Below are positions 14,862 to 59,700 of a stretch of DNA of 63,134 nucleotides, piece by piece; positions within the stretch are counted from its first letter, which is position 1; every line of letters begins with the position of its first letter. Source of the stretch: Atractiella rhizophila (Eukaryota); contig MU271361.1 in NCBI GenBank assembly GCA_021432655.1, positions 1 through 63,134 on the forward strand, read 5' to 3'. Under the pieces are notes generated by a model. That model was not told the origin of the DNA. It saw nothing but the letters and a program-made list of their open reading frames with translations, and searched no databases. The position numbers and the translations under genes were made by a program.

Positions 14862-16138
14862 CCATGATGCAAGGTTCCTACTATGTTTCTGAAGACTTCC
14901 ATATTTCCCCACCTTCCTCTGAAGATTGTGAAACTAAGGTGAGATGCCTCATTAGAGTTGATTTCAGGGCTGTACTGAGAGAAACTAGAATTATAGGCAT
15001 AAAGAGTGGATGAAAGAGCGGGCTAGTCCACACAAGCGTAAGGATACAGCACAAAATGTCGTCTCCACTGAAACGAATACAGGATTCACTTCTCGGAAAT
15101 CACACCAGGCTCGCAAGATCATTGTTGCTGCCGTATTTCCCGAGTTCTACACCATCGACGAGGTAGACCGACTCTATGACATTGTTGATGAACAGCGTGA
15201 CAGAAACTACCGCTGGGATGGTACTCCAAACAGGGAACCTCATTGTCACCGGGTGGGGTGGAAGTTGAGAGCAGGTCATTATGAGGCAATTCGATGGGCA
15301 GGATCTCAACTTTCAGATGCTTCAGACGTTAATCGACGTAAGGTTGGCGCCTGGTGTCTCATAGGCATTATTTCATCCCTCTTGAACGAATGGCCCGAAA
15401 ATTGTATGGACCATCTTATGCTGCGCTCAGTCGTCCATCTCGGGATAGATAAAGCCGTGGGCGTGTATAAATGACAAGCAATGCGAAATGAAGGGTTTAA
15501 ACCTCCATCTTCGACGACTGGCCCAGGCTTTCTCTTTTCTTCAATCTCTGCACCTTACGCATACTTCCTCACCTCCCTGTAGCCCATCGAATCGTTTCTC
15601 AAGATAGAGTCAGGACGTCGGACAGACACAACTATGGTGGAAGAACGGCTAAATAGGCACTTGTCGCACATTTGAGTGATGTAACCTTCGATTCGTCGAG
15701 ATGCAAGAATGGAAAGCCCAAATATGTACCGAACGCGAACGGGTACTTTTGAGGAGCTGAACATTCCGTTGCTATTTCGACGAGAGCAGACTTTATTTGG
15801 CACTGCTCAACCAGACACAGAATACAGTACTCGTGTCCTGGAGAAACAGCTTTAGGGCGAGTAAAGTTCGTGACGAAATAACAAGCCAGCTTTCCCCAAC
15901 TTGAGTGAGGCTTAGGACTTTAGGCTCTAGGTGTAAGGTGTCGACGATGGTCAGTCCTGCTTGTTCAGTTTCCTTGTTCTCAGAAAAGTCGAGAATCATT
16001 CAGAAAGGGCCTGCGGTAGCTCGTGATTGGATTTCCAAAAAAATCCTTGACAAATTTGGGAACATGGGGCTGAATCGAGGGGGTGGTCTGGAGAGTATTG
16101 GAAGGAGAGAGGACAGAAATTTATGGGTACAAAGCTAA
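14862..16138 (+). pseudogene. Degenerate hypothetical gene (ORF 15010-15474 plus frameshifted or stop-interrupted continuation)
   Basis: A possible short first exon and GT-AG intron precede the 154-aa ORF. Protein-like fragments continue in shifting frames (LNLHLRRLAQAFSFLQSLHL) into the duplicated segment. No family recognised. Confidence 0.25.
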
Positions 16139-16934
16139 CTACCTGTCATCCCTGCTGCTATTACTTCAATAATTACATCCTGAGAACCAGAAGCCTTGAC
16201 CGCTCAACAGGCAGTAAATCGAGTAAACCAAAGTAAAGCCAGGAATTGAATTGTATTTTTGAAGTGTTCCATTTAAAATGGTAGGGTTAGGGTGTTGTGG
16301 GTGACATCGGAAAGAAAGGACCAGAAATAGCACAAGTTAAGAACGTCCAAGTCCCATCCCAAGTTTTCTCTCCCAAAACTAGCAACCGCCAGTCAGCATC
16401 TCTCTACCCAAAGTCCCATACTGAGGGACTCTTACTCCCACGTTATCGATGAAGAAGCTGCGGTGGACATTGGGAACGACACTGCCTGTCATCGTGTCGA
16501 CTAAACCCATCGGATGGAAGGGGAAAGGGAGGGATTGGGATTGGGATATTCAGGAATTTTCAGGGGGAGATGTCATGAGGAAGAGGGACGTGGAGTTGGA
16601 GATAGACGCGAACTATTACAGTTCGGACTATGTGGATACTCTGGGTGAGAGCTCGTGAGTGTCCCTCACTCTCCTTTCTCCGAAGATCAACGGGTGTGAC
16701 CGTCCTCATTCCTTCTCCACCTACTCCTAGGTCCCACCAATACCTTAACCGCCGTGAAAATGGGAAGAATGTTCCAGTGTACTACGAGTATAACGCAACC
16801 ACCGGACAGTGGGAGGAGACCAACAGTTGGCACCTGAACGGGGTCCAAGGGGAAGATGTTCACAGTCTGGATTCAGATCAGCCAGACAACGGATTCCAGC
16901 AAGCCATTGATTCTGGACAAGGCAGCAGTTCTTC
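15499..16934 (+). repeat. Direct duplication copy 1 (~1.43 kb) of 17256-18687
   Basis: Starts aaacctccatcttcgacgactggcc and ends caaggcagcagttcttc. Colinear with copy 2, with scattered substitutions and small indels. Confidence 0.97.
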
Positions 16935-16965
16935 AAAAAAAAAAAAAAAAAAAAAAAGGTGTTGA
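16449..16965 (+). pseudogene. 3'-truncated duplicate of the 18203-20392 membrane-protein gene, reading through poly(A) to ...SSSKKKKKKKRC*
   Basis: Same first exon and intron (16655-16730) as the intact gene. The frame runs through the A23 tract to a TGA at 16963-16965. Confidence 0.8.
16935..16957 (+). repeat. Poly(A) tract (23 A) at the duplication junction
   Basis: Seen directly. It is absent at the homologous position 18688, which continues tgtcccg. Confidence 0.97.
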
Positions 16966-17007
16966 ATTGAGCGGGACAATGGAGTGCTCAATCAGTAGGG
17001 AACGATT

Positions 17008-17019
17008 GGGCTCATAACC
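17008..17019 (-). mobile_element. Primer-binding site GGTTATGAGCCC complementary to the tRNAiMet anticodon arm (half-tRNA priming, copia/Ty5 type)
   Basis: The minus strand reads ...TTTCAACA|GGTTATGAGCCC, so the PBS directly abuts the LTR end, as in Ty5 and copia. Confidence 0.85.
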
Positions 17020-17255
17020 TGTTGAAACTGAGGTTCATCAGAGTGACAGAACGAAGAAAAGATCAGCATTGCATGAACGTTGGTGAGGAGTCACCTACCT
17101 GAGGTTCATCAGAGTGACAGAACGAAGAAAAGATGAACCTCAGATAGCTGAAAAACAGACTAAACTACGGGAGCGGGCGGAACTGACACCAGATGCGATA
17201 GCCAGCTCAAAAGGGCAGAAAGAAAGTAAAAGTCAAAAACGTAATAACTTCAACA
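17020..17255 (-). mobile_element. Ty1/copia-type LTR (236 bp), 5' LTR remnant
   Basis: Terminal inverted repeats TGTTGAA (17020) and TTCAACA (17255), with an adjacent PBS. No gag/pol in the window. Confidence 0.82.
17028..17143. repeat. 36-bp direct repeat and 12-bp inverted repeat inside the LTR
   Basis: ctgaggttcatcagagtgacagaacgaagaaaagat occurs at 17028-17063 and 17099-17134. ctgaggttcatc (17099-17110) is the reverse complement of gatgaacctcag (17132-17143). Confidence 0.93.
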
Positions 17256-18687
17256 AAACCTCTATCTTCGACGACTGGCCAAGGCTTTCTCTCTTCTTTA
17301 ATCTCTGCACTTTACCCATACGTCCTCCTCCTCCCTGTAGCTCATCGAATCGTTTCCCGAGATAGGGTCAGGACGTCGGACAGACACAACTAGCGAGAAC
17401 GGCTAAATAGGCACTTGTCGCACATTTGAATGATGCAATCTTCGATTCGTCGAGATGCAAGAATGGAAAGCCCAAATATGTACCGAACGCGAACGGGCAC
17501 TTTTGCTGAGCTGAACATTCCGTTGCTATTTCGACGAGACCAGGCTTTATTTGGCACTGCTCAACCAGACACAGAATACAGTACTCGTGTCCTGGAGAAA
17601 CAGCTTTAGGACGAGTAAAGTTCGTGACGAAATAACTAGCCAGCTTTTGCGAACATGAGTGAGGCTTAGGACTTTAGGCTCCAGGTGTCAGGTGTCGACA
17701 ACGGTCAGTCCTGCTTGTTCAGTTTCCTTGTTCTCAGAAAAGTCGAGAATCATTCAGAAAGGGCTTGCGTTAGCTCGTGATTGGATTTCCAAAAAAAATC
17801 CTTGACAAATTTGGGAACAAGGGGCTGAATTGAAGAGGAGGTCAGGAGGTTTTGGAAGGAGGGAGGACAGAAATTTATGGGTACAAAGCTAACTACCTGT
17901 CATCCCTGCTGCTATTACTTCAATAATTACATCCTGAGAACCAGAAGCCTTGAACGCTCAACAGGCAGTAAATCGAGTAAACCAAAGTAAGGCCAGGAAT
18001 TGAATTGTATTTTTGAAGTGTTCCATTTAAAATGGTAGGGTTAGGGTGTTGTGGGTGACATCGGAAAGAAAGGACCAGAAATAGCACAAGTTAAGAACGT
18101 CCAAGTCCCATCCCAAGTTTTCTCTCCCAAAACTAGCAACCGCCAGTCAGCAACTCTCTACCCAAAGTCCCATACTGAGGGACTCTTACTCCCACGTTAT
18201 CGATGAAGAAGCTGCGGTGGACATTGGGAACGACACTGCCTGTCATCGTGTCGACTAAACCCATCGGATGGAAGGGGAAAGGGAGGGATTTGGGCTGGGA
18301 TATTCAGGAATTTTCAGGGGGAGATGTCATGAGGAAGAGGGACGTGGAGTTGGAGATAGACGCGAACTATTACAGTTCGGACTATGTGGATACTCTGGGT
18401 GAGAGCTCGTGAGTGTCCCTCACTCCCCTTTCTCCGAAGATCAATGGGTGTGACCGTCCTCATCTTTCTCCACCGACTCCTAGGTCCCACCAATACCTCA
18501 ACCGCCGTGAAAATGGGAAGAATGTTCCCGTGTACTACGAGTATAACGCAACCACCGGACAGTGGGAGGAGACCAACAGTTGGCACCTGAACGGGGTCCA
18601 AGGGGAAGATGTTCACAGTCTGGATTCAGATCAGCCAGACAACGGATTCCAGCAAGCCATTGATTCTGGACAAGGCAGCAGTTCTTC
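17256..18687 (+). repeat. Direct duplication copy 2 (~1.43 kb) of 15499-16934
   Basis: Begins on the base after the LTR terminal CA and continues into the intact gene. Confidence 0.97.
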
Positions 18688-20392
18688 TGTCCCGAATCTA
18701 CAAGGCGACAGTGTTATCTCCACAGACAATCCCACTCCCACCACTGTCTCTTCCGTTCCTACTACGACCACCTCCCCTACCACTAAAGCTACCTCAACCC
18801 ATACCTCGTCAAGCTTTAGCATCACAGTCCCGAATGGCTGGACACCGCCAAAACGAGGTTCCAACCTTTACGCTTCTCACATCATCAGCGGCGTATCCGT
18901 CGTCTTAGCAGTCATGATCGCAGGATTAATAATAGCTGTGGTGGGGTGGAGGAAAAAGTGGTCATTCGGTGTCGGAATGTGGGGAAAGAAAAAAGCGAAG
19001 GAGAAGAAGCTGGAAGCTGATGCTGAAGGCACTGACGGGAAGGGAGGCCGAGGAGGGAATGGGAAGAAACGGAAAAAGAGCGCAGCGGTGGATAAGTTCA
19101 GAGCCGCATTAAGGAGGAGGAAGAACGCTAAACGCGAAGTGGAGAGAAGGAACGCCAGCCGCGACAGCTTTGAGCCCGCCACAACCTCCACTCTCGCTCT
19201 CCGTCCCGTCATTGCTGTTTCTGAGGCATCAAGACCCGGTTCACGGCTGTCAACTCAGTCCGAGCTGCCTTGTCCTTCCGTGCAAGGAACTACCCTCCAT
19301 CCTCTATCGTCATCGCGCCCTTCTCTATCCCGTTCCTCATCACATACACATTCCCATCTTTCAAGTACCGGTTCCCGTCGAGGCCCAGATCACAACGACA
19401 TCTCGCCCGATTCATCACCTCTCCTCCCACCAGCGACCTTTCCCGCCAACCCTCCGGCCTACATCAACTCTTCACCCGCCTCCTCAAGTCTTATCGCCTC
19501 CAATCTTTCCAGCGAAAAATGCCGATATTCCTCCGAGGAGCAAAGCGGCAGCGGATCAACGTTTGATCGATCAACTCCATTTCCCCCGCCTACCATTGAC
19601 GTACCCAATCAGGATGAGGCACCTCCCCCTCCCGACCCCTCACCTTCGCATGCTGTAGGGATAACGGGCCACATCGCCACGGACGATAAGACGATCCTTA
19701 GCAGGATGTTCGCGTCTGGAAGTAGACCAGAGGACGAGGAAGAGTTGATCGGGACCAGTAGCACTCCTGTCGTGTCTGCTCCTAATCTGGAAGTAGATGA
19801 CGACGGATTTGAGATTGTGGTCACTTCTCCGGAGGCAAGTTCATCGATAGCCGCCAGTGCCGCAGCCTCCACGTCCAACGCTTTCCCCCTCCCGCCCGCG
19901 CCTTTCGCCATGCCAACCTACACTCTCTCCCACCCGCCACGCCCACATCCGCATTCAAGCTCTCTGACACACTTCGTTGCTCAAGGATTCCCATCTGCCC
20001 CGGAATATGATGGTCCCATGACTTCTCGTCGGGAGGAGAAGAGGCGGGCTCTAGAAGCAGAAGCGGAGCAGGATTGGAGGTTCCGCCCTTCCGCGCCTGA
20101 GGAGGAAGGGGATATTCTAGACGAGGAGGAAGCGGAGGTCATCCCTTCAGCTCCAGAGAGGGAATCGATGGAACCAGATCGCGGTTTCTTACCTATGTAC
20201 GAGCCATCAGCACCTTCAGCGCCGCCCATGGTGGAAGAGCAGCTAGAAGGTCCTACTGCTCCACCATGGAATGAATCTGATGGAGGAGAAGAGGAGGGAG
20301 CGGAGCGACCGAGATCATGGCATTCGACGAGCACTGATCACAGTTTGAGGAGAAGGGATGGGAGTTTGAGGGATGAGTGTGCGGATGTTTGA
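18203..20392 (+). CDS. Uncharacterised single-pass membrane protein (~704 aa; S/T-rich stalk, TM, basic linker, PY/PSAP-rich tail)
   Basis: The intron at 18409-18483 joins the ORFs in frame. Contains a Thr/Ser-rich stretch, TM IISGVSVVLAVMIAGLIIAVVGW, a KR-rich juxtamembrane region, PPAY and multiple PSAP motifs. Confidence 0.8.
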
Positions 20393-56709: not shown

Positions 56710-59700
56710 ATGATGGCTGACAACGATGCAGTGGGCAAGAAAGGTGCCAAGAAACAGGCCGGCGCGAAGGCACCTGAAGCGCAACCAGCGCCATCTGCCC
56801 CAGCCCCAGCGAAAAAGTCAGCGCTCGCCTCTCAACTTCAAGATATTACATTTCGGATTCAGTCTCCAGTCAACAGCCCAAAACCCCAGCCTCTGGATAG
56901 TCCGTCAATGGGAGTACTGGATGGTAAGAAGAAGATCGACATAAGCACTAAAACTTGGTCTCCCAAAGCTGCTCCACATCTAGGTTCTGGGCTGAATGGA
57001 ATCAATATGGGCAGTCCTCTTCTGAGGAGCAACCGTGGAACACCGACGTTTCAGGTTTGTGCACCTCCCTTCTCACCTTGGTTGAAAAGTTAGTGATTAT
57101 CATTTCAGCCCCTGGATTCAGGAGGAGGAGACCGGTTCGTTTTCTCCCGTCCTTGTTGAATATCACTCACCTGACACAATGCACTATCTAGGATGGGAGA
57201 GTTACGAAACGAGATGAAAACATTGGAAGCTGTTCTCTCTGCTGCTGTAGTCCAGCAAAACAGCCCTCGAGTTTCACCACCCCGTTCCTCATTCTCATCT
57301 CCCCTCTCCCCGCGCTCTCCAGCGGCACGTACCCCTCTTTTCTCTCCTCGTTCGCGGGCCGAAAGCGTTGTGGACGAGGACGAATCTGGTGCGAACGACA
57401 AAGGCTTGTTCGGGGATAACAATGGATGGGGTAAACAAGCTGGCGCTAGTGGTAGTGGAGTGAGGGTGGAAGATGATACGCGAGTGGAAGAGGAGGCAGC
57501 GAGGATCGTCGCAGAAGCAGAAGCAGCTAAAGCTGCGGCAGAAGCGGCAGCTGTTGAAGCTGCAAGAAGAGCGGAAGAGGAGGAGAGTCGCAGGAGAGCG
57601 GTAGAGGATGAGGAGAGGAAGTCGGAAGAAGAGAAGAGGAGGATAATGGAAGAGGAAGTTGAGAGGAAGAGATTGGAAGAGGAGAAAGAGGCGAAGCGGT
57701 TGCAGGAGGAGAAGAAGCGAGCGGCAGAAGAGGAAAAGAAGAGGTTGGAGGAGGAGAAGAAAAGAGCGGAAGAGGAGAAGAAGAGGTTGGAAGAGGAGAA
57801 GAAGAGACTCGCAGAGGAGAAGAAGAAATGGGAGGCAGAGGAGAAAAGGAAGAGGGAAGAGGAAGAGGAGAAGAGGAAGAAGGAGGAGGAGAAGAAAGAG
57901 AAGAAGCGTCAAGCAGAAGAGGCGGAAGCAAGGAAGAAAGCGGCTGAAGATGCAGTCGCAGCTATTCTCAAAGCTAAGGCTGTGGAGGAAGCGAAGAAAG
58001 ACGAGGAGCTCTTTCGACTCAAGGCTAAATTAGAGCAAGAAGAGAAGGAAAGGAAGGAGGCTGAGGAAAAGAAGAAGAAGGACGAAATTGCGAGGAAGAA
58101 AGAGGAGGAGCGGTTGGAGAAACAACGGAAGGAGGAAGAGGAGAGAAGGGAACGAGAACGCGAAGTTCGGCTGGAGAACGAAGTGAAGAGGAGGACGCAT
58201 GAAGGCATCAAGAAAGCGATGGACGAGGAGGCGATTAGGCAGAAAATAGAAGACGAGAAAAAGGCAGCAGAGAATGAGAAGAAGATGAAGGAGCTCATGG
58301 TACGTTCATGCCTTCTCAGACGTAGTTTATTTGACTTATAATGTGTGCAGGAGGAACAGCAGAAGAAGGCCAAAGAAATGGCGATTAAAGCCGCTGAGTT
58401 CGTCTTGTCTGATTCATGACGAAAACTGTTCTCACGCCTGCGGTCAGGGTGACACGTATTGAAGCAATGGCGAGACGTGCGGCGGAAGAGAAGGAACGGT
58501 CAGAAAAGGCCGCACGTCGACAGAAGGAGATTGATGCCCGAGATCGACGACACGCCATGGCCCTCCTCCGCACACCTACCACTGTCAACCTCGGGTCTCC
58601 TAACCTTGACTTAGACCTCGATGACTTTGACGTGGATTTCGATGACAGCGACAGTGATCGAACAGCTTCACCTGTGCTCGACCTTCTCGATGATAGGCTA
58701 GAACGCTCTATCGAGCCCATGATCCCCACCTCGAGCGCGAAGATCTGCCTGCCTCCACCCCAGCCATCGATTTCACCTTTGAAGCGTCCATTTTCTCCAG
58801 CTAAAGGTCCCGTGATGACATCCCCTCCTTTCTCCCCAGCTAAAGGTCCAGTGATGACCCCTGGCCATTTCTCTCCGATTACAGGCCCCGTCACCACAGC
58901 GGCTCCTCTAGCTTTCTCTCCTGCTTTTGGCTTTACCCCTCCAGATAAAAAAGCGTTGCTTCCCGGTCACCAATCTCCTTGGATAGGGAGTGACAGGAGG
59001 AGCAAAGGGGGTCTTAGTCCGAGTGAACTGCTCGCTGGAGTTTCTTCGCCAGGGTGGGAGCCGGATGACCATCCCGGATTCGGCATGAATAGAGCTTCTC
59101 CCCCTCTCATCTCAAATTCGTCTCCTAACGGTCTCCTCAGAGGAAAGGGAAGTAGTGCAGGTTCACCCCATCCGTCCATTTCCGCACCAACTCGCTCCAT
59201 TGAGTCCGTTCTTGCACCAGTGATGTTAACGACGTCACCGTACAAGTCTCCAGTTCCGCCTCAAAGGTCACCAAGCGCTCTTTTCACTCCTCCAGCAGCC
59301 AACAACTTCGGAATGGGGAGTCCAATGCCTAGTCCTAGCCAAATTGTCATCGTTTCCAGTCCGACGGGTAAGCTTTTCTGTTCGAACAAACCTTAGCTCA
59401 ACACTTCTTCATTGTAGTCCCTGGTTATCGCATAACGCATACACTGGGTCAGTGTTGGGGGACCGCATACATTCCCATCTCACCGGACGAGAATCTACCT
59501 GCATTACTAAATGGCATGGATGAACGAGCGCAACAGTTGACACAGGCAGGCAGAAGAGACGCTGTGAAAGGCTTGCTGAACGAAGCTGAAGCGATGCGTG
59601 CCATGGGTCTCATCAACTTGAGATTCAGCGCTCCAGTTCCGTCTGGCGTTTCGGAGGTGAGCTTCTTGTGTCTCCCTCGACATGGTGATTGACGACCGTT

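Follow-up and report, generated by a model that had tools for sequence, protein, structure and literature searches.

Introduction

Ty1-dependent retrosequences and chimeric cDNAs of yeast were reportedly described by Derr in 1991, by Schacherer in 2004 and by Maxwell and Curcio in 2007. To our knowledge, reverse transcription by an LTR element is known as a route to gene duplication only from selected yeast experiments, which have a different geometry from the locus presented here. Ty1 reverse-transcribes cellular RNAs, and the resulting retrosequences become part of the genome, where they are found at the junctions of rearrangements (PMC7175516). Chimeric retrocopies mediated by LTR elements are common in animals (Tan et al. 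2016, PMC5131818) and, as described there, have element sequence on both sides and are intronless and dispersed, with microsimilarity present at 25 of the 29 junctions. The primer of copia is a half-tRNA and that of Ty5 is an anticodon stem-loop (PMC5371799). Tandem copies also arise in assembly, and in some of these false heterotype duplications the two copies are linked by an unsupported fill and not by a gap (Ko et al. 2022, PMC9516828).

Here we describe a locus of Atractiella rhizophila at which two copies of the front part of a gene flank a run of adenines and a piece of an LTR element. The original prediction, made from the letters alone, was that an unspliced, polyadenylated transcript may have been captured by a copia element. 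We find that the idea of a captured transcript is unproven and that the layout may be an assembly join.

Results

All positions refer to the window, which is the whole stretch of DNA that was analysed (63,134 nt). Sequencing runs comprised one heterozygous DNA run (X1) and three RNA-like runs (X3, X4 and X5); the small-share runs X6–X23 were not used. The locus consists, in order, of copy A (15499–16934, forward strand), a run of 23 adenines (A23; 16935–16957, forward strand), 62 nt of element leader and primer site, an LTR of 236 bp (17020–17255, reverse strand) and copy A′ (17256–18687, forward strand). Sequence and alignment agree with every coordinate and with the order of parts in the original prediction, including the direct contact between the terminal CA of the LTR (17254–17255) and the first base of A′ (17256). 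Copy A has 1436 nt and A′ has 1432 nt, and their alignment spans both from end to end with 1376 matches, 54 mismatches and eight gap columns (96.2% identity; 95.7% across 1438 columns by BLAST). This pair is one of three self-matches in the window, the others lying within the LTR (a repeat of 36 bp) and at 57.6 kb (a weak one of 147 nt). There is no N between A and A′, which are bridged by real letters. A reversed-but-not-complemented block was looked for at the A/A′ locus and is absent, and an Rfam search over 15000–19200 gave one sub-threshold match only.

The last coding stretch of the upstream gene is an ORF at 14989–15474 (forward strand; stop codon 15472–15474) for which a Pfam search found no family. 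The transcript of this gene extends into the start of A, as seen in an RNA-like contig (X3 record 8, covering 15083–15664) that skips a 45-nt GT..AG intron between 15037 and 15083. To the left of A stands this unique gene, with no element sequence on that side and no short duplication around the copy. Copy A, assigned to an insertion-free (alpha) type from sequence, alignment and contig comparison, contains the 3′ UTR of the upstream gene, the intergenic region with the promoter, exon 1 (16449–16654, from RNA contigs), a 76-nt intron (16655–16730, spliced in RNA contigs) and the first 204 nt of exon 2 (16731–16934), all on the forward strand. Its ATG lies at 16449, 950 nt downstream of the start of A, in keeping with the earlier claim that A retains the intron and about 950 bp upstream of the ATG. 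Copy A′, of the insertion-bearing (beta) type, begins with AAACC and continues unbroken into the remaining gene. The full gene (18203–20392, forward strand) has exon 1 at 18203–18408, an intron at 18409–18483 and exon 2 up to the stop codon; its product is Ser/Pro-rich, with no Pfam family above the cut-off. It had also been claimed that A stops mid-exon at an A-run absent from A′, and this holds, since A ends 204 nt into exon 2 and A′ reads on with tctgtccc past 18687.

The LTR lies 25 nt past the stop codon of the upstream gene. It has the termini TGTTGAA...TTCAACA, with TG..CA ends and 7-bp terminal inverted repeats, and contains a 12-bp hairpin and a 36-nt direct repeat (17099–17134 and 17028–17063) with GTAGGT after the first repeat copy. 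Its start pattern gave one match against none expected in 100 shuffles, which excludes chance. Immediately past the LTR end is the primer-binding-site core GGTTATGAGCCC (17008–17019, reverse strand), which presumably fits the anticodon stem-loop of an initiator tRNA; ARAGORN found no tRNA genes in the window. Downstream of the primer site come 50 nt of the element 5′ leader (16958–17007, reverse strand), which are common to other family copies in X1 from 16985 or 16995 rightwards, as judged from loose ends. The LTR, primer site and 50-nt leader are the only parts of the element in the window, which has no interior or coding part and no second copy of the LTR. The original description of an inverted PBS-LTR, antisense to the gene, is thereby upheld, with a multi-copy LTR on the reverse strand and, next to it, a primer site that is presumably of the half-tRNA type of copia and Ty5.

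The LTR family is multi-copy, with a summed contig depth of 60,000–73,000 in X1 against about 300 in the flanks, and there are many loose ends at 17018–17020 and 17255–17260 in X1, X3 and X5. Its depth is high in X3, an RNA-like run, as well (LTR bins 830–839). The family is probably active, because it is abundant, has high RNA-like depth in X3 and includes a polymorphic insertion. Exact-pattern searches for the parent element found no loci in metagenome contigs with either of two patterns, and none, one and two loci in viral contigs with three patterns; of these, L002 and L003 are unrelated chance matches in phage-like sequence. The one locus in prokaryote genomes belongs to a bacterial MAG of high GC content and matches over 21 nt by chance. 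Three other origins were considered and rejected for parts of the locus: a LINE-type insertion, because it would put the A-run on the opposite end of the element piece and because a target duplication is lacking; a SINE derived from a tRNA, because there is no tRNA-like fold; and a copy of the tRNA primer as the source of the 62 nt, because other family copies share these 62 nt.

We found that the LTR insertion is polymorphic in X1. One contig joins the unique upstream flank at 15499 to 17016 at a depth of 124.9; it reads as flank-AAACC-LTR when the left junction is placed by its exact 4-nt offset, no letters being given between the two sides of the joint. The flank contig has a depth of 278.3 and the continuation from the flank into A-type sequence a depth of 177.5. 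On the other side of the element, X1 record 6 (17229–17425) runs from the LTR into A′ with no differences from the window in 197 nt, at a depth of 143. The sequence AAACC stands at 15499–15503 and again at 17256–17260, so that its position after the LTR in the window and before the LTR in X1 forms a target-site duplication of 5 bp. Among the 16 sites in 15499–15671 that separate A from A′, X1 record 2 has the A state at 15 and record 6 has the A′ state at all 16. Behind a single-copy flank, X1 thus continues either into A-type or into LTR-plus-A′-type sequence. An ordinary insertion of a multi-copy copia/Ty5-like element, still polymorphic and with 5 bp of its target duplicated, accounts for the LTR, and A starts at AAACC because the resident LTR breaks collinearity there.

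Over the conserved part (16109–16690), records 4 and 5, which are long contigs of X1, have a depth of 309–333, against 269–278 for flank contigs. Three copies would be expected to give about 1.5 times the flank depth, and the conserved part lies below this; contig depth is no strict measure of copy number and the argument is soft. Type-specific contigs have depths of 120–178 against 269–346 for the flank, in a run that is possibly from another strain than the window. X1 and the window disagree at 15424 and at three positions within 15505–15515, and X1 has a third sequence type (record 3). It is probably not the strain behind the window, and its copy number is therefore not binding for the source strain. 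Bins of X1 without cover (17961–18101 and 18243–18383) carry no evidential weight.

Differences between A and A′ are unevenly distributed, with 51 in 686 nt (7.4%) of the far upstream region and intron and eight in 750 nt (1.1%) of the proximal promoter and exons; this contrast between unconstrained and constrained parts is significant (Fisher p = 3e-10). Free drift of A would predict about 28 differences in the constrained part against the eight observed (Poisson p = 1e-5). RIP was rejected as a cause of the differences, which have no transition bias. These differences track functional constraint and fit old allelic divergence, not decay after duplication. A and A′ look like two alleles of a single locus, alpha without the insertion and beta with it. 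As in false heterotype duplications, the copies have haplotype-specific variants and their divergence is allele-like. The scenario that had been named as refuting transcript capture, in which two haplotypes are represented by A and A′, finds partial support in the two alternatives at 177.5 and 124.9 of about 278 depth in X1 and in the allele-like divergence.

We then compare the character of A with that of a transcript. Its intron (16655–16730) is spliced in all three RNA-like runs compared (X3, X4 and X5), yet it is kept in A, which does not have the intron loss of a processed or LTR-mediated retrocopy. Copy A includes about 900 nt of apparently untranscribed promoter, with an X3 depth of 0 over 15705–16409 and RNA contigs starting near 16389–16478; it is not limited to the transcribed region, although rare read-through transcripts are possible. 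It has neither an element on both sides, as in the retrocopies of Tan et al. (2016), nor LINE-type target duplications around the copy. There is no AATAAA-like or A-rich element in the 40 nt of sequence preceding the end of A. No RNA end at 18687 is seen among the 16 of 28 loose ends listed, and RNA contigs of X4 (records 17 and 18) pass through this position. Given the kept intron, the promoter of about 900 nt, the absence of a poly(A) signal in these 40 nt and of an RNA end among the loose ends listed, A resembles DNA and not mRNA, and A23 alone argues for RNA.

A poly(A) tail, a T-run in the leader of the element or a faulty fill may account for A23. No other homopolymer in the window reaches 9 nt, and the run forms a poly(A)-type tract at the 3′ end of A that is missing from the parent gene. 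The contig comparison left out a masked stretch (16922–16966) that includes A23. The one diverged relative seen, at an X1 loose end (16985), has ...AGGGGAAG... where the window has ...AAAAAGGTG...; this relative is purine-rich on the window strand, with no A-run within the 30 letters shown. A reading frame across the junction of A and A23 would end ...SSSSKKKKKKKRC, and no homologues of it were found in the protein collection (queries of 65–209 and 33–105 aa), from which short ORFs at contig edges may be missing.

Discussion

The explanation that we prefer, and that we consider evenly poised, is that the insertion-free allele has been joined to the insertion-bearing allele inside the element with no RNA involved. 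In its favour are the insertion allele of X1, the X1 depth over the conserved part, the allele-like divergence and the DNA-like content of A. No transcript would have been captured, and A and A′ would be the alpha and beta versions of one locus. For its first 1.43 kb the record would follow the alpha allele, through flank, empty site and A. It would then jump to the beta allele within the element, where an A/T homopolymer lies 50 nt away from the primer site. After the jump it would read leader-PBS-LTR-A′-gene, the multi-copy body and far LTR of the element having been skipped. A join made by the assembly, as a false heterotype duplication closed without Ns, is a plausible if tentative form of this explanation; we infer that the A-run then belongs to the element or to a bad fill, with the join made in silico. 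There is no N and real letters stand at the join, and an assembler based on k-mers or overlaps would need reads across ...ttcttc/A23/ggtg...; only a faulty gap fill or chimeric reads could therefore make the join in silico. Alternatively, the join may be a real non-homologous exchange between two homologues, which we regard as improbable and less likely than an assembly join. Such an exchange needs both homologues in one nucleus. This explanation without RNA requires a long T-run in the element leader at the point of the join, which is unusual, and the exact position of A23 where the poly(A) tail of a gene-sense copy would be tells against it.

A real RNA-mediated event, installed by homologous recombination rather than by integrase, is possible but on balance doubtful. 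An unspliced, polyadenylated transcript of the alpha allele would have served as template for the extension of a DNA 3′ end of element plus-strand polarity (LTR-PBS-50 nt), which either belonged to nascent plus-strand cDNA inside a particle or was left by a break in a resident element. The resulting chimeric cDNA (gene sense-A23-leader-PBS-LTR) would recombine on the right with the resident LTR of the beta allele and on the left with the homologous gene or flank, as gene replacement or as a cDNA bridge between homologues, to leave a tandem copy carrying promoter, intron and poly(A) tail, antisense to the element. This would account for a pure A23 at the exact 3′ end of the gene-sense copy, absent from A′ and the only long homopolymer in the window, in a contiguous record without N; the seamless flank-A junction and the intact junction of LTR and target duplication are those expected from two homologous crossovers, and an alpha-type A beside a beta-type A′ fits a transcript of the other allele. 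The abundance, high RNA-like depth in X3 and polymorphic insertion of the family are likewise favourable, and there is precedent in the Ty1 retrosequences (PMC7175516) and animal LTR-mediated retrocopies (PMC5131818) described so far in these sources. However, the A-run is the only hallmark of mRNA in a copy that keeps its intron and about 900 nt upstream of the RNA-supported start, there is no poly(A) signal and no RNA end at 18687 among the 16 of 28 loose ends listed, and the element is on one side only, in an orientation opposite to that described for LTR-mediated retrocopies (PMC5131818). The lack of a K-tail protein from the junction in the protein collection is a weak point against it.

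Other ways of making a physical tandem are far less probable. The original prediction was of a free chimeric cDNA whose LTR end was joined by integrase and whose other end was joined by homologous recombination, to give a 1.43-kb pseudo-target-site duplication. While the LTR terminal CA does abut the first base of A′, and A does start at the same base, the flank-AAACC-LTR contig of X1 contradicts this mode of joining: with LTR-AAACC-A′ it makes a normal two-ended insertion with a 5-bp duplication at the same site, so that the LTR is an ordinary polymorphic insertion and not the integrase-joined end of a chimeric cDNA. A plain AAACC target duplication in X1 thus replaces the kb-scale one. To retain the model would need either a deletion between two AACC tetramers that recreated a perfect 5-bp duplication (a chance 4-nt match being about 1 in 256) or two independent insertions of one family that coincide in both base and orientation, which is unlikely, and we consider it very improbable. 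We give equally little credence to an older DNA-level tandem duplication whose copies diverged later, with LTR insertion or filler at the junction. It would explain why A has a promoter and an intron and why the copies are 3.8% apart, but constraint-shaped divergence is unexpected for a truncated dead copy, the start of A coincides exactly with the LTR target duplication, an allele with the flank directly beside the LTR exists, and A23 is left unexplained.

The two leading explanations differ in what they mean. A physical tandem with a poly(A) tail as its A-run would be a natural case of local duplication made by LTR-element reverse transcriptase, with promoter and intron, and installed by recombination. 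We know of no description of such a local copy, with promoter, intron and poly(A) and antisense to the element, in LTR-mediated retroposition. That the tandem is physically real and was made by reverse transcription, through a copia-like plus-strand end on an intron-retaining transcript of the other allele, seems to us a possibility that falls short of likely. If the layout is a haplotype join, it illustrates that heterozygous retrotransposon insertions can yield retro-looking tandem 'duplications' in this assembly, and it provides a record of a copia-type element that is young, polymorphic and inserted in a gene's 3′ UTR.

Comparison with the systems as described in the sources cited here places the locus between several of them. 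Like yeast Ty1 retrosequences, it has cellular sequence with an A-run end fused to LTR-element sequence, and entry would use homologous recombination with resident elements, with segmental duplication possible. Unlike these, copy A is unspliced, has a promoter and adjoins its source; it is joined to the element 5′ leader in the opposite sense, with the element on one side only, and RNA involvement is suggested by the A-run alone. Animal LTR-mediated retrocopies (PMC5131818) share with A host gene sequence in place of part of the LTR-element interior, but none of the features listed for them in that source is demonstrated for A, and two failed. The false heterotype duplications of Ko et al. (2022, PMC9516828) resemble the locus in having allele-like copies side by side on one scaffold with haplotype-specific variants; here, the two types are alternatives at about half depth in the heterozygous run X1, which is probably of another strain than the window, and the site has a heterozygous structural difference. 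They differ in that there is no N gap here, the bridge being A23 and a piece of the inserted element. Finally, while placement in the Ty1/copia group is made without proteins, from an LTR, primer site and 50-nt leader only, the element has a putative primer site right after the LTR with the presumed complement of a CAT anticodon loop (PMC5371799), and its TG..CA LTR, 5-bp target duplication, multi-copy family and presence/absence alleles are those of a polymorphic insertion of the copia/Ty5 type.

Results

Copies A (15499-16934, + strand) and A' (17256-18687, + strand) of one gene segment, the insertion-free and insertion-bearing types respectively, form direct repeats aligning at 96.2% identity (1376 matching positions, 54 mismatches and 8 gap columns). 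Between them lie a run of 23 A residues (A23, 16935-16957), a 62-nt segment (16958-17019) and a 236-bp long terminal repeat (LTR; 17020-17255, - strand) of a copia/Ty5-like element, with TGTTGAA...TTCAACA ends. On the minus strand the LTR is followed immediately by the primer-binding site (PBS) motif GGTTATGAGCCC, then by 50 nt, T23 and the antisense gene. The original prediction had described this anatomy accurately and had correctly named the element and its polarity (minus-strand LTR-PBS-leader, antisense to the gene). The motif GGTTATGAGCCC carries a sequence complementary to a CAT anticodon loop and presumably fits the initiator tRNA of this fungus, as is the general pattern. Copia is primed by a half-tRNA and Ty5 by an anticodon stem-loop (PMC5371799). 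The window contains no tRNA gene, no second LTR copy or other long repeat, zero N letters and, apart from A23, zero homopolymers of at least 9 nt; a weak direct repeat at 57567-57908 (~147 nt, 70% identity), within overlapping long ORFs, is its only other internal repeat.

The LTR family has many copies in the genome. Contig depth, which is not copy number, sums to 60,000-73,000 over the LTR in the DNA read run X1 against ~270-350 in the flanks, and contigs with other flanks stop at 17018-20 and 17255-60 in X1 and in the RNA-like runs X3 and X5. Exact-pattern scans of metagenome contigs, viral contigs and prokaryote genomes found no parent copy; on a GC-rich bacterial MAG contig, 21 nt of the PBS-LTR junction are matched exactly (locus L001, 3001-3021), but the surroundings are unrelated and the match was dismissed as chance. 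Within 17020-17160, on the minus strand, lie a 12-bp hairpin, CTGAGGTTCATC ... GATGAACCTCAG, and a 36-nt unit of the LTR (17134-17099) that terminates in the hairpin's right arm and is followed by GTAGGT; the unit recurs without change at 17063-17028, where it ends in CAG 8 nt short of the LTR end. The stretch from GTAGGT to CAG reads like a putative 71-nt intron whose end repeats the preceding exon. Its unspliced form is present in an RNA-like contig of X3 (record 11, 17034-17120), and no spliced joint occurs among the contig joints listed.

The gene model was fixed by RNA-like contigs from three runs (X3, X4 and X5). Exon 1 of copy A (+ strand) starts near 16390-16480, with its ATG at 16449; all three runs splice out a GT..AG intron (+ strand; 16655-16730 in A, 18409-18483 in A'), and exon 2 (+ strand) runs to a stop codon at 20392, as supported by the ORF and RNA-like contigs. 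The product is Ser/Pro-rich, with zero Pfam families above cut-off. The upstream gene terminates at 15474, with a transcript contig that extends to 15664 and so crosses the start of A. Copy A holds, in order, ~170 nt of that gene's 3' UTR, ~700 nt without X3 cover, the promoter, exon 1 and intron, and 204 nt of exon 2. A real and expressed copy A would yield a protein made up of the gene product's initial 137 residues and a KKKKKKKRC ending, the latter read through A-run and leader (16449-16965); no such protein turned up in the collection searched. Contigs of X3 and X5 skip a GT..AG intron of 45 nt in the upstream gene (15037-15083), very short even by fungal standards.

X1 is heterozygous at this locus. 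The single-copy flank contig, at depth 278.3, stops at 15494, where two branches take over; one of them (record 2, depth 177.5) is of the A type, agreeing with A at 15 of the 16 sites separating A from A' and having three private differences. The other (depth 124.9) links 15499 to 17016, passing from flank-AAACC into the LTR's first bases; the contig comparison does not give the letters between the ends, and the joint is taken as direct because the shared AACC accounts exactly for the offset of the two ends. Over 17229-17425, record 6 (depth 143) matches the window without a difference; it reads LTR-AAACC-A' and has the A' state at 16/16 sites. The A-run stretch (16922-16966) was masked in the read comparison. 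Together, these contigs amount to an ordinary insertion allele bearing a 5-bp target-site duplication (TSD), AAACC, its 15499/17016 joint inferred to be direct, beside an allele that lacks the LTR at that junction. The kb-scale pseudo-TSD and the integrase-joined end that had been proposed are both contradicted by this allele, and an integrase step becomes unnecessary. That A begins at the very base of A' which the LTR end adjoins is an outcome expected of any resident insertion: the chromosome resumes at the TSD to the right of the LTR, so a second copy of the region is collinear only from the TSD onwards. It is unlikely that the simple allele derives from the duplicated form through an AACC-AACC deletion rebuilding a perfect 5-bp TSD. 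In the interval 15472-15664, the polymorphic site AAACC (15499-15503) lies 25 nt past the upstream gene's stop codon, within its RNA-supported 3' UTR, so the insertion allele should alter that gene's 3' end.

Three copies over two haplotypes predict ~1.5 times the flank depth; records 4 and 5 of X1, covering the conserved part (16109-16690), have depths of 309-333 against 269-278 for flank contigs, and record 7 (depth 268.8) runs as one contig from 18530 through 18687 to 19031. X1 probably does not carry the duplication, a reading these data support softly. At 15424, 15505, 15506 and 15515 all X1 depth shows another base than the window; X1 is probably an isolate other than the window's source, and its copy number therefore says nothing on that of the source strain. 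A third sequence type in the divergent part (record 3, depth 122.9; 15723-15852 and 17689-17790) differs from A at 7 and from A' at 12 positions, with 71 letters that cannot be aligned lying between its two aligned parts. We take this type to be the insertion-free allele of X1, distinct from the window's A. The population thus has several deeply diverged alleles of the promoter-distal intergenic region. Within 18748-19147, X1, X3, X4 and X5 combine two base states in different mosaics, at 18748, 18821, 18904, 18919 and 18973 among other sites, as would be expected of two common haplotypes if the contig builder retains one state per site.

A and A' differ at 46 of 610 nt far upstream (15499-16108; 7.5%) and 5 of 76 nt in the intron (6.6%), against 3 of 340 nt in the proximal promoter (0.9%), 3 of 206 nt in exon 1 (1.5%) and 2 of 204 nt in the exon 2 part (1.0%), a separation of constrained from unconstrained parts at Fisher p = 3e-10. 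The constrained parts hold 8 differences where ~28 are expected for a drifting dead copy (Poisson p = 1e-5), the expectation being at least half neutral divergence on the assumption that A has been dead and truncated since duplication. There is no RIP-like bias among the differences. On the simplest reading of this pattern, they would have arisen while both copies were working alleles, in agreement with X1, where both types lie behind one flank. It follows that any duplication is young and unites two pre-existing haplotypes.

Discussion

The origin of A23 is the crux of the case. That it is the poly(A) tail of a transcript copy is unproven: it is pure A, stands at the 3' end of the gene-sense copy, is not in A' and is unique in 63 kb, but A retains, as DNA would, its intron and ~900 nt preceding the start that RNA supports. 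Moreover, the 40 nt before the end of A have no A-rich or AATAAA-like element, X4 RNA contigs pass through 18687, and no loose end falls there among the 16 listed of 28 loose ends. Alternatively, A23 may come from the element itself, as a T-tract in its leader. The one relative visible, a diverged X1 contig, breaks off at 16985 and has plus-strand AGGGGAAG where the window has AAAAAGGTG; read in the element's sense, its homologous position is a pyrimidine tract. The 30 letters given for this contig end at that point and are neutral as evidence for a T-tract.

The A/LTR-A' tandem may be an assembly artefact, a reading to which we give appreciable weight, short of an even chance. The record would then follow the insertion-free path (flank, empty site, A) up to the homopolymer and go on from there along whatever end of the insertion-bearing path could be resolved (leader-PBS-LTR-A'-gene). 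Against this, N letters are lacking in the window, and assembling the join would take reads that span it. Two haplotypes in tandem, the refuting scenario raised with the original prediction, is the better-supported half of the picture, favoured by the allele-like divergence and by both types lying behind one X1 flank. A real non-homologous exchange between homologues at a fragile T-run would give the same sequence and is unlikely. An RNA-mediated origin is tentative but tenable: a 3' DNA end with the polarity of the plus strand (LTR-PBS-50 nt) would be extended on the other allele's polyadenylated unspliced transcript, and the chimeric cDNA would then recombine homologously, at one end with the resident LTR and at the other with gene or flank sequence. 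A cDNA bridging both homologues would require no more than a normal-start, intron-retaining, prematurely polyadenylated mRNA. This most economical RNA model differs from that originally proposed, in which copia plus-strand synthesis switched onto such a transcript with one end joined by integrase and the other by recombination, and that exact model is very improbable. So is an old DNA duplication, where the divergence argues for a young one; a small remainder is left for causes outside these readings. Transcript capture is unproven, and the initial interpretation as a whole is partly supported.

The A-A23-leader-LTR-A' record has the shape of a linearised heterozygous bubble, and in this it resembles false heterotype duplication, pairs of which, according to passages of Ko et al. 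2022 (PMC9516828), are usually separated by gaps and sometimes bridged by unsupported filled sequence. Ty1-dependent retrosequences enter by recombination and are positioned at rearrangement junctions (sections of PMC7175516), and LTR-mediated retrocopies occur in animals (sections of PMC5131818). Both differ from A in that intron loss is their hallmark, whereas A keeps its intron; theirs are dispersed and have element sequence on both sides, neither of which holds for A, and the relative orientation at A is the opposite.
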